This document shows, piece after piece, positions 3,502 to 6,697 of a stretch of 6,697 nucleotides of DNA. The translations under genes were made by a program, and so were the position numbers. Source of the stretch: Octopus vulgaris (Eukaryota). The notes below the pieces were generated by a model that was not told the origin of the DNA, did not search any database, and was given only the letters and a program-made list of their open reading frames with translations. The stretch covers positions 1 through 6,697 of the forward strand of contig CATOCA020000088.1 in the NCBI GenBank assembly GCA_951406725.2. The letters run 5' to 3'. Every line of letters begins with the position of its first letter. Position 1 is the first letter of the stretch.

Positions 3502-3624
3502 TGGTGCTCCCCTATATTACCTGCACCCCTTTACTATCTCTCCCTCTCTTTTCACTGGTGAAACCTTTCTCAGCTGGACCCCCCCCAACTCAACTCTACC
3601 CCGCATCCCGTTGCCCCCGTGTCC

Positions 3625-3873
3625 CTGGCACGTTAAAAGCTCGAACCGATCGTGACCGATGCCGGACCCCCCGGCCCCTGTGCAGGTGGCACGTAAAAAG
3701 CACCCAATCCACTCACGGAGTGGTTGGCGTTAGGAAGGGCATCCAGCCGTAGAAACTCTGCCAGAATCAGACTGGAGCCTGGAGCGGCCCCTGGCTTCCC
3801 AGACCCCGGTCGAACCGTCCAACCCGTGCTAGCGCGGAAAACGGACGTTAAACGATGATGATGATGATGATGA

Positions 3874-3877
<4 letters not shown>
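3625..3877 (+). mobile_element. 3' portion of an RTE-related SINE/non-autonomous retroposon with terminal stem-loop and (GAT)8 tail
   Basis: Contains tggcacgtaaaaagcaccc...gagtggttggcgttaggaagggcatccagccgtagaaa...ggacgttaaac(gat)8, recalled as a common octopus repeat end. A hairpin directly before a short tandem tail is typical of RTE/CR1-type 3' ends. The 5' boundary is uncertain. Confidence 0.7.
3854..3877 (+). repeat. (GAT)8 tail
   Basis: Eight perfect GAT units directly after ggacgttaaac. Confidence 0.97.

Positions 3878-3939
<62 letters not shown>
3876..3939. repeat. Perfect (AT)32 microsatellite
   Basis: Directly visible. Confidence 0.99.
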
Positions 3940-3942
<3 letters not shown>

Positions 3943-4163
3943 CTGCAAGAAAGAAAAAAGAAGCATCTCTCCCGAAAAAAATCCCGTAAACCAAAAAAAA
4001 ATTATCCAGACCACATTGTTGGATTAAGTATCAATTTCATCTATTTCATATTTTATTTATTATTCTATTTTATCTTTCACTTAGGCCCACATCTTAGTTA
4101 AAGTTGCGATCGTCATTTGGTTTGTTTACATTTTCAATAACTGTTCTCGATATAATAATTTTC

Positions 4164-5148
4164 CAGATACTCTATCTTCTAATTAGCCTTAAGATTAAAT
4201 TAAATAACGTTTAATATTGATGCCGTCAAATTAGCCTTAGGATTAAATTAAATAACGTTTAATATAGTTTAATATTGTTAATAATTATTATTAATTAGCC
4301 TTAAGATTAAATTAAATAACGTTTAATATTGTTTTAATATTGTTAATAATTTTTCAGATACTCTATCTTCTAATTAGGCTTAAGATTAAATTAAATAACG
4401 TTTAATATTAATAACGTCTAATTAGCCTTAGGATTAAATTAAATAACGTTTAATATTGTTAATAATTATTGTTAATTAGCCTTAGGATTAAATTAAATAA
4501 CGTTTAATATTGTTTAATATTGTTAATAATTATTGTTAATTAGCCTTAGGATTAAATTAAATAACGTTTAATATTGTTTAATATTGTTAATAATTATTGT
4601 TAATTAGCCTTAAGATTAAATTAAATAACGTTTAATATTGTTTTAATATTGTTAATACTTCTTCAGATACTCTATCTTCTAATTAGCCTTAAGATTAAAT
4701 TAAATAACGTTTAATATTGTTTTAATATTGATAATACTTCTTCAGATACTCTATCTTCTAATTAGCCTTAAGATTAAATTAAATAACGTTTAATATTACC
4801 CACACTCCTAATATAATATTAACATTGCTAATATATTTTCAGATACTCTATCTTCTAATTAGCCTTAAGATTAAATTAAATAACGTTTAATATTACCCAC
4901 ACTCTAATATAATATTAACATTGCTAATATATTTTCAGATACTCTATCTCCTGATTAGCCCTTAAGATTAAATAACGTTTTTATCCACACTCTAATATAA
5001 TATTAATATTGCTAATATATTTTCAGATACTCTATCTCTAATTAGCCTTAAGATTAAATAACGTTTTTACCCAAATAACGTTTTTACACAAACTTTAATA
5101 TTGTTAATATTTCTTTTTCAAGTACTCTATCTTCTAATTAGCCTTAAT
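4164..5148. repeat. AT-rich modular tandem array, 14 copies of core TTAGCCTTA(A/G)GATTAAA, spacing 48-97 bp
   Basis: The core, with minor variants, starts at about 4183, 4231, 4295, 4374, 4422, 4476, 4540, 4604, 4683, 4762, 4859, 4955, 5042 and 5138. An optional module cagatactctatct occurs at 4164, 4355, 4664, 4743, 4840, 4936 and 5024, and degenerate at ~5119. Confidence 0.96.
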
Positions 5149-5208
5149 ATCTTCCTGTCTTCTCTCGAACATAATTAGATAGATAAACGGATAGACGGAT
5201 TATCCAGC

Positions 5209-5409
5209 ATGTCCAGAGCATGGAGACGTGACGAGCTGGATCTATTCGTACGAGCATGGGAGTGCGCCGGCGGAGATAGCCCTAGCGAGGTGATTGCGGC
5301 TGCGCTGAAGAGCAGAGGCTACAAGAGGACAGCGGCTCAGATGGAGCGAAAGAGACAGGAATTCGTGCGCTCATATGCGCTTGTACCGGTCGCACATTGG
5401 CGCACTTGA
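5209..5409 (+). CDS. ORF1 N-terminal segment, Myb/SANT-like (trihelix/MADF-type) DNA-binding domain
   Basis: MSRAWRRDELDLFVRAW...VIAAALKSRGYKRTAAQMERKRQEFVRSY fits the W-x3-E-x6/7-W...IA-x2-L-x3-G-x2-R-T-x2-Q-x3-K pattern of Myb_DNA-bind_4-like domains. It starts at the first ATG after the AT-rich array, where GC content rises sharply. Confidence 0.65.
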   Translation: MSRAWRRDELDLFVRAWECAGGDSPSEVIAAALKSRGYKRTAAQMERKRQEFVRSYALVPVAHWRT

Positions 5410-6121
5410 TGCCATCTTTGAGAACGAGCGGGGCAAAGATGGCAAGAATGGAGACGATGAAAGAAGTCACCCCCACCTGGTGGACGCCCAGGAGGAGGTT
5501 TTGAATGAGAAACCTGCCCGGGAAGTGAACCCAGGTGCAAGTTCTCCAACCGGCAGCAAGGGCCATGGAGACGGAGAACCCGGTGAAGAGGTAGAGGGAG
5601 GAAGAAGAACTAAAAGAAGGACTGGAAGAGCTAAAGGAAAAGAAAAAGCTCAAGCAGGACCAAAGAGTGAAACAACCAGGAGTAGAAGTGGAACCGCAAA
5701 GGATGGAACCAAACAGCGCACACGGGTGTGTATGTTCTACCTGAGAGGTTCCTGCTGGCACGGAAAGGAAGGTGCAGGCTGCCGCTTTGCACATCGGGGA
5801 CCCTGCCACAGAGACACGAGGCAGATGGACAAACCATCAACACAAAGAAAAGGGATGGACTACGCACCACCTGCCCCAAAGCGGAGGTACGCAGATGTTG
5901 TGCGCGCCACAAACAGCCAACATGATGTTGTCGAAAGGGCAGCTGCTGAGCAACAATCTTTTTTGTGCATGGCACAAAAGATTGTACAGCAGCTGACCTG
6001 GCTTCATCAAACCCAAGCCCGCAGGTGGGACTACCCACTATATACCAGACCACCACAGCAAACAGACACAGGATGGACACCGCCGGCAACAACGTACACC
6101 TCACCTCGATACTCCTACTGA
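5375..6121 (+). CDS. ORF1 main segment of the LINE: charged/basic linker, CCCH zinc finger, YADVV motif
   Basis: CMFYLRGSCWHGKEGAGCRFAH (C-x7-C-x8-C-x3-H, 5729-5794), basic NLS-like stretches, PKRRYADVV, and position directly upstream of and overlapping the APE ORF. Confidence 0.75.
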   Translation: MRLYRSHIGALDAIFENERGKDGKNGDDERSHPHLVDAQEEVLNEKPAREVNPGASSPTGSKGHGDGEPGEEVEGGRRTKRRTGRAKGKEKAQAGPKSETTRSRSGTAKDGTKQRTRVCMFYLRGSCWHGKEGAGCRFAHRGPCHRDTRQMDKPSTQRKGMDYAPPAPKRRYADVVRATNSQHDVVERAAAEQQSFLCMAQKIVQQLTWLHQTQARRWDYPLYTRPPQQTDTGWTPPATTYTSPRYSY

Positions 6122-6697
6122 ACATCAGAGGACTGCAAACACTCAGTAACAGGACAAAGATCCCGTTCCTGAGAGACTTTGTTGCATGCAATCAAGCCTT
6201 ATGCATAGCACTTACAGAAACGCACCTGAAACCGGACATAGCAGATGCGGAGTTACACATACCACAGTATGCTGTACTACGGACCGACAGGAAAGAAAGG
6301 AGTCATGGAGGTGTTGCTATGTACATCCGTGAGGACCTCACACCCCAGGTCCTCTTGTCATACTCAAACTCGGTGTGTGACACACTAATTGTACATATTA
6401 GGCAACTTGATGTAGTTGTGTGTGCTACATATCGCCCTCCAGATGCCCCAAGCCATGTGGGCAAGTTCGAAGACTGCCTTATAAAAATAGAAGAAATTCT
6501 AACCACATTAGAACAACACATAGGTGTGCTTCTTATGGGAGACTTCAATCTGCCCAATGTCAGATGGCCCGAGGGCCTTTCTCTCCCAGGAATGACAAGA
6601 TGTGAATGAGGACAGGCGAGGTCCCTCCTGAACCTCATCAACACCCTGTACATGGAGCAGGTAATACTCCAACCAACCAGGGCAGGTAACACACTGG
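6073..6697 (+). pseudogene. LINE ORF2 N-terminus, apurinic/apyrimidinic-like endonuclease (EEP superfamily), interrupted by TGA at 6607-6609
   Basis: Motifs LLNIRGL, IALTETHL, RTDR...GGVAMYI, YRPP and LMGDFNLPNVRW are present. After the stop the same frame continues GQARSLLNLINTLYMEQVILQPTRAGNTL, matching the conserved PTR..N.LD region. The first ATG is at 6073; the frame is open from 5950. Confidence 0.93.

Follow-up and report, generated by a model that had tools for sequence, protein, structure and literature searches.

The stretch of DNA analysed here (the window; 6,697 nt, the whole of Octopus vulgaris contig CATOCA020000088.1) carries the 5' portion of a young CR1-group LINE, whose family we call A. 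Its features are as follows.

3876..3939, no strand: (TA)n microsatellite, the 5' flank holding the LINE insertion; similarity from copy to copy starts at 3937
3937..5208, + strand: LINE 5' UTR, with about 235 nt missing relative to the full-length 5' end
5209..6121, + strand: ORF1, frameshifted in the window copy; intact copies such as L003:1610-2518 encode 303 aa
5209..5443, + strand: Myb/SANT-like (Myb_DNA-bind_4 / trihelix-like) domain; helices at residues 7-20, 25-35 and 42-60, a fourth at 63-78; pI 10.2
5386..5387, + strand: single extra base that puts Myb and CCCH in different frames
5435..5704, + strand: charged spacer (aa 76-165) with few hydrophobic residues (6 in 90) and with K/R clusters; evolves fast
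5729..5794, + strand: CCCH finger, C-x7-C-x8-C-x3-H, CMFYLRGSCWHGKEGAGCRFAH, nearest to finger 1 of the array in PHD-type relatives
5939..6013, + strand: conserved amphipathic helix (SFL-x-x-M type motif), common to Myb- and PHD-type ORF1s
6073..6697, + strand: start of ORF2 (APE); first in-frame ATG at 6073, with a 49-nt overlap with the end of ORF1

The window copy and its family

A DNA search with positions 5100-6697 returned 2344 candidates, and the 40 of these that were scored were 99-100% identical across the whole query. The 5' truncation of the window copy is evident from 11 of 14 longer copies, which extend about 235 nt farther 5'. Its 5' UTR contains AT-rich tandem monomers of about 50-100 nt at 4153-5150, with 14 TAACGTT words; in family A the number of monomers differs from copy to copy, and mouse L1 promoters likewise have monomer arrays of varying copy number. 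The APE frame downstream of ORF1 matched Exo_endo_phos above the Pfam cut-off. It contains a TGA at 6607-6609 that is private to this copy, and the contig ends within the APE. Among the family A copies fetched at 10 kb (n = 14), ORF1 was intact in all 14 and ORF2 (1039 codons stop-to-stop) in 12. As in the CR1 group, the family A ORF2 carried only Exo_endo_phos, Exo_endo_phos_2 and RVT_1, with no RNase H, and all 14 3' ends had the stem-loop and repeat tail of that group, here a hairpin followed by (AATC)n.

Several neighbouring features were recorded alongside. The terminal hairpin before AAAC in the octopus families A, C and G (L032, L084, L150; families described below) has wholly different stems with compensatory changes; the 3' tails in this set are (AATC)n, (GTAAAA[GA])n and (TCTAAGTT)n, and that of family H is (AAATG)n. 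Within the window, positions 1531-2795 hold about 2.5 tandem copies of a 508-513-nt unit (98-99% identity, (TC)n within), which was unmatched among the loci fetched, and 3600-3877 is a SINE-like repeat of about 280 nt with a (GAT)n end, copies of which (77-93% identical) lie in at least 12 unrelated loci.

The extra base after 5385 belongs to this copy alone. We aligned 29 other copies, chosen as the best-scoring and so enriched for young ones; in 28 of them one open 313-codon frame (303 aa from its Met) joins the Myb and CCCH parts, and the remaining copy has a nonsense change of its own. The window shows four private differences, including the extra base and the TGA at 6607, none of which occurs in any of the 29, and these may be mutations or errors of a small contig. 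Contigs from three public runs span the extra-base site with no gap. A frameshift that is a family trait or a programmed event is ruled out by its restriction to the window copy.

The intact ORF1 thus read consists of Myb/SANT-like helices, a charged spacer, one CCCH finger and an amphipathic helix. The first-pass annotation had proposed that a LINE ORF1 joins a Myb/SANT-like pattern to a CCCH finger upstream of a CR1-type APE; both motifs lie where it placed them, the 28 fused frames confirm the union, and the segment 5209-5409, on whose presence in other copies it had staked the proposal, is retained across the copies aligned. The spacer is likely disordered. As a separate observation, the last 66 residues of a lipin-like protein (P0130) are 62% identical to the spacer of family A/E ORF1s; this C-terminus is a piece of LINE that splicing or mis-annotation has joined to a host gene.

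Identity of the N-terminal domain

In the frame opened by the ATG at 5209, Myb_DNA-bind_4 (PF13837) was matched at about 5215-5379 with E 0.0024 and 18.7 bits (cut-off 27). Family A scored 16.5-18.7 bits overall, short of the curated cut-off, and the profile was listed in 6 of 22 A-type sequences (E 0.002-0.1), in none of them above the Pfam cut-off. Searching the genome with PF13837 gave 43 matches, and the best 30 of the 43, which were fetched, comprised 25 members of LINE family G and five non-LINE genes; 18 of the 25 G-type loci had an APE start downstream within the fetched flank. By hmmscan, five of seven family G ORF1s exceeded the PF13837 cut-off (28.9-36.2 bits) and the other two reached 23.6-23.9. 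An N-terminal profile built without family G (A3) scored 32-54 bits on every one of the 25 N-termini of G type and 5-10 bits on the five non-LINE genes. Using HHalign, A3 aligned with G at 97.8% (score 64.8) and with the five non-LINE Myb/SANT-like genes at 94.3% (score 41.8), compared with scores of at most 14 for reversed or 30 column-shuffled targets (shuffles up to 13.4 against the five genes and 13.6 overall). That 25 of the 30 top Myb_DNA-bind_4 matches in the octopus genome are retrotransposon ORF1s, not transcription factors, is a warning for annotation.

The AlphaFold2 model of the domain (23 sequences, pLDDT 87) has four helices and a predicted HTH fold with a long third helix. In the VIA list it is closest to the MYB protein RAD (Z 7.9, rmsd 2.5, 58 aligned), then LUX and ARR1; trihelix GT-1 follows at Z 7.5 (rmsd 7.1, 75 aligned), TEAD4 at 7.3 and Zeste at 6.7. 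No entry reaches 8, and TEAD and homeodomain folds score like Mybs. Foldseek with the domain model returned nothing at E 0.001 or better (E over 0.2), and the A3 profile matched no Myb chain among PDB sequences, the sole match being ribosomal S8 at E 0.02. An atlas search with the 66-aa peptide placed Myb-type clusters at 0.77-0.84, below the 0.9 lead threshold, and is not counted as evidence.

These sub-threshold Pfam scores in family A, the Z values under 8 and the lack of a significant match by Foldseek or among PDB sequences are what would be expected of an unrelated three-helix bundle whose likeness to Myb is convergent. We consider convergence highly improbable, as family A is linked by transitive homology to family G, which clears the curated cut-off, and the direct profile-profile match to the non-LINE genes far exceeds the shuffles. 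The Myb assignment accordingly draws on the chain of profiles from A3 through G to PF13837, together with the non-LINE genes, a match in predicted fold being insufficient by itself. At the level of sequence profiles, these comparisons establish that the N-terminal domain is homologous to Myb_DNA-bind_4 proteins. The homology bears out one half of the earlier suggestion of a dsDNA-binding module; the other half, DNA binding itself, is a property that we infer for the domain.

Myb-type and PHD-type relatives

Genome searches recovered the same layout of Myb, spacer, one finger and helix, followed by ORF2, in families B, C/D, E and F, with an intact ORF2 in C/D, and the proteins P0122-P0124 share the Myb-CCCH arrangement of family A. 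The Myb domain of A is 41-66% identical to those of the other families, with pN/pS of 0.27-0.49 versus 0.64-1.0 in the spacer, and is under purifying selection in several diverged families. A protein search of 1.84 billion representatives produced 33 matches, and six of the ten that were checked carry Octopus names. Family G differs in combining Myb with four CCCH-type fingers; one of its subfamilies (L169, L170, L177, L181-L183) has an extra partial copy of finger 1 before the array, an internal duplication. Family H, found in the octopus genome with a PHD-CCCH query, has an intact ORF2 and an ORF1 with a PHD-type finger (Pfam E 0.03, plus the PHD pattern) and three CCCH fingers, in which the Myb profile found no match. 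The proteins P0152, P0155 and P0157 have the PHD-CCCH layout of family H.

To these we can add a metagenome scan with ORF2, which yielded 80 loci, 41 of them with at least 500 nt upstream. The Myb profile matched 0 of these 41 upstream regions (best E 0.4). CCCH arrays were present in four, and the three with a visible N-terminus (L188, L190, L191) were all PHD-type and without Myb, in a non-octopus sample that is small (these three elements) and in which Pfam confirms the PHD of L188 only, those of L190 and L191 being called by pattern. A metagenome scan with the family G ORF1 gave 39 pattern matches, 0 of them confirmed, and a protein search for CCCH arrays gave four matches among eight candidates, too few to show a distribution. 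Among the elements seen, Myb and PHD are mutually exclusive.

ORF1s with a PHD and 3-4 tandem CCCH fingers mark a clade sister to CR1-like elements; the carriers are family H (L167, L168, L171, L179, L180), L188, L190, L191, P0152, P0155 and P0157. In H, L190, L191 and P0157 a shared helical region without a Pfam match lies ahead of the PHD and looks SAP/HeH-like, by eye only.

The rest of ORF1 is held in common by the two types. The window's finger scored E 0.0049 against zf-CCCH and E 3e-5 against Torus, both below the Pfam cut-off, and its x7-x8-x3 spacing departs from the canonical C-x8-C-x5-C-x3-H; the family E finger is above the zf-CCCH cut-off (21.1 bits), and the finger profile matches Muscleblind fingers (E 8e-5). 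All seven intact A-type ORF1s listed have the C-x7-C-x8-C-x3-H ligands together with aromatic stacking residues. The A finger matched finger 1 of H, P0152 and P0146 at 37-38 bits and those of G at 20 bits at best, and so is nearer the PHD-type proteins than G, as a chimera predicts. The CCCH finger is an inherited remnant, the first finger of an array of 3-4, and Myb the newcomer. The CCCH part of the fusion noted at first pass is consequently present but not new, since PHD-type relatives have it too. The SFL/DFL helix at the C-terminus recurs in all CCCH-type ORF1s compared except P0155.

On the ORF2 tree, all CCCH-type elements form one clade apart from the CR1-like PHD-coiled-coil/esterase elements (100/100). 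In this clade, A and C are joined to the PHD family H (100/99), and the partner of G is the PHD element L188 (95/97); both groupings repeat in trees of 40 and 20 rows. A single clade of Myb families is rejected, with p-AU 2e-8 for the 15 rows whose ORF1 was seen and 1.7e-6 for 20 rows. The 15-row tree has long branches and a midpoint root, with unnamed elements labelled by ORF1 type, and most of the 120 ORF2 proteins, having no known ORF1, were left out of the main trees; an RT-only FastTree with all 120 joined A and G weakly (0.66) and was otherwise poorly resolved. The Myb-bearing families are thus non-monophyletic on the ORF2 tree.

The Myb domains of the A-type families and of G resemble one another more closely than they do the non-LINE genes, which argues for one capture followed by transfer of the 5' module. 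The simplest and most likely reading is therefore a single Myb capture and a later passage of this module between lineages, with the PHD replaced each time; the transfer would have been a recombination involving the G lineage, on one side, and the ancestor of A-F on the other. The donor was presumably a host or Harbinger-type Myb/SANT-like gene, although none of the five non-LINE Myb genes lies beside any of the nine DDE_Tnp_4 matches in the genome, and a Harbinger donor is not supported. The capture of a foreign module, raised in the first-pass annotation from a single element, is upheld and extended by two LINE lineages that share Myb in place of PHD.

Proposed role and known systems

ORF1 proteins generally package their own RNA. 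We propose that an ORF1 in which Myb replaces PHD has, in this domain, the DNA- or chromatin-tethering end of an RNA-packaging protein, and as a whole explanation we hold this to be about evenly balanced between right and wrong. The CCCH finger is predicted from its sequence to hold the element's own RNA, the amphipathic C-terminal helix would likely oligomerise ORF1p, and the basic Myb domain would likely bind dsDNA with little sequence preference, which would hold the particle at chromatin and leave the choice and nicking of the site to the ORF2 endonuclease. The tethering role is proposed by analogy with that suggested for the PHD which Myb replaces: the text of PMC4120745 puts forward a general genome-targeting role for the PHD fingers of ORF1 and states that a functional study of them is lacking.

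Alternatively, the domain could be no DNA binder but a protein-interaction module that recruits ORF2p, import factors or chromatin complexes, or acts as an anti-silencing decoy. The Harbinger Myb-like partner, for example, binds its transposase. The helix-3 Trp typical of the Myb_DNA-bind_4 family is replaced here in the HHalign alignment, the fourth helix, extra to the Myb core, is conserved, SANT and DNAJC2-type domains lie within 1 Z of DNA-binding Mybs, and the PHD that was replaced is itself a protein-binding reader. We nevertheless think such a module unlikely. Histone-binding SANT domains are typically acidic, and all 22 sequences of this domain are basic (pI 8.9-11.4), 21 of them with a net positive helix 3; moreover, R40, Q44 and K48 of helix 3, which are nearly invariant and the most conserved positions, are on the predicted recognition helix.

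Two further possibilities, target choice and self-regulation, had been raised at first pass, and neither gained from the comparison of families. The domain might choose where the element inserts and direct it to (TA)n microsatellites, and (TA)4 does occur within 30 nt of the 3' flank in 12/14 A, 4/7 C (one C locus being without a 3' end) and 11/16 G copies, against a background of 16/629 windows in the distal flanks of G. But insertions of the PHD family H lie in (TA)n too (3/7, above its background of 6/151), the difference between the Myb families (27/37) and H gives a Fisher p of 0.18 with families that are not independent, and in APE LINEs the target is normally set by the endonuclease. 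We regard site selection as quite improbable. Binding of the domain to the element's own 5' UTR monomers, as a regulator of its promoter, is suggested by the TAACGTT words in the family A array, reminiscent of the Myb site YAACKG, and is at least as doubtful a proposition as steering, for the UTRs of A, B, C/E and G showed no long similarity when compared. Family E makes the point most directly: its Myb is 66% identical to that of A and its ORF1 is closest to A, but its pyrimidine-rich UTR is about 70% like that of C (L084, L091). A recognition helix is thus conserved without a conserved UTR partner, the UTRs having been replaced between families that share it.

Two observations concern the surroundings of these insertions. 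TA-array windows make up 30-45% of the distal flanks in A and C versus 3-4% in G and H. At L031, L034, L036 and L042-L044 (family A), long (TA)n arrays contain more pieces of the same family at distances of a few kb, often in inverted orientation, and these represent clustered insertion.

A bolder version of the history, in which a Myb captured from a host or Harbinger-type gene and passed between two distant LINE lineages guides ORF1p by sequence to (TA)n-rich chromatin, seems to us unlikely as a whole. If this were true, a transcription-factor-like DNA-binding domain would be seen in an ORF1 type for the first time, and in the genome's young expanding families. The natural PHD/Myb swap on a shared CCCH-helix chassis, which a single genome holds in young families that are intact (A, C/D and G with Myb, H with PHD), makes the role of LINE ORF1 N-terminal modules testable, for example through a comparison of insertion profiles.

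The nearest described systems are the CR1-lineage LINEs with a PHD-containing ORF1 (types III and V of Khazina and Weichenrieder, as used in PMC4120745), which likewise have two ORFs, an APE-RT without RNase H, a microsatellite 3' tail, an N-terminal reader module in ORF1, and shuffling and transfer of ORF1. As presented in that paper's text, 448 Jockey-group ORF1s were analysed, RRM, CCHC, PHD, esterase and zf/lz are listed, and ORF1 transfer between lineages and domain shuffling are described; the words Myb, SANT, CCCH and Zenon do not appear in its main text. The octopus ORF1 differs from the forms described there in its Myb/SANT-like N-terminus and in an RNA-binding part that is CCCH rather than RRM, CCHC or esterase. 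Compared with described types I-IV (RRM+CCHC, L1-like, PHD, esterase), the family A ORF1 showed no RRM, CCHC, PHD or esterase in Pfam scans to E 10 and in CCHC and PHD pattern searches, and it falls in the unclassified type V.

From sequence motifs, the octopus LINE group may belong to CR1-Zenon; the octopus element measures about 5.7 kb, and on our tree the CR1-like PHD/esterase elements are the sister of its ORF2 group. CR1-Zenon is reported as a clade near CR1 that is common in bivalves, about 5.2 kb long and reduced or absent in cephalopods, in passages that say nothing on ORF1 domains (PMC10294476, PMC11481361). The octopus families depart from those reports in being several, abundant and young, a comparison made with the reported properties. 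The passages of PMC9115989 that describe an octopus RTE mention no CR1, CCCH or Myb. Our literature search, whose scope left out Repbase, Dfam and paper supplements that may hold such families, found neither Myb nor CCCH described in a CR1-group ORF1, nor CCCH arrays described as an ORF1 type. The octopus elements would thereby add two ORF1 features that look undescribed, CCCH arrays and Myb, and a tree-supported transfer of a module between LINE lineages.

The domain itself shares with PF13837 proteins (PIF/Harbinger accessory proteins, MSANTD, GT-1, Zeste) a W-x-x-x-E helix 1, an R-[ST]-x-x-Q-x-x-x-K helix 3 and a basic surface, being homologous by profile and modelled with the same predicted fold; unlike them, it is part of a retrotransposon ORF1, joined there to a CCCH finger, and has its helix-3 Trp replaced. 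Myb-type domains also occur in the N-termini of the R2 group and in TRAS ORF2, where they are part of the protein with the RT and recognise the target of a site-specific element, whereas the octopus Myb sits in ORF1 and its element has no unique target. The Myb-CCCH ORF1 is a new variant within a kind of LINE already known for module shuffling and reticulate evolution.
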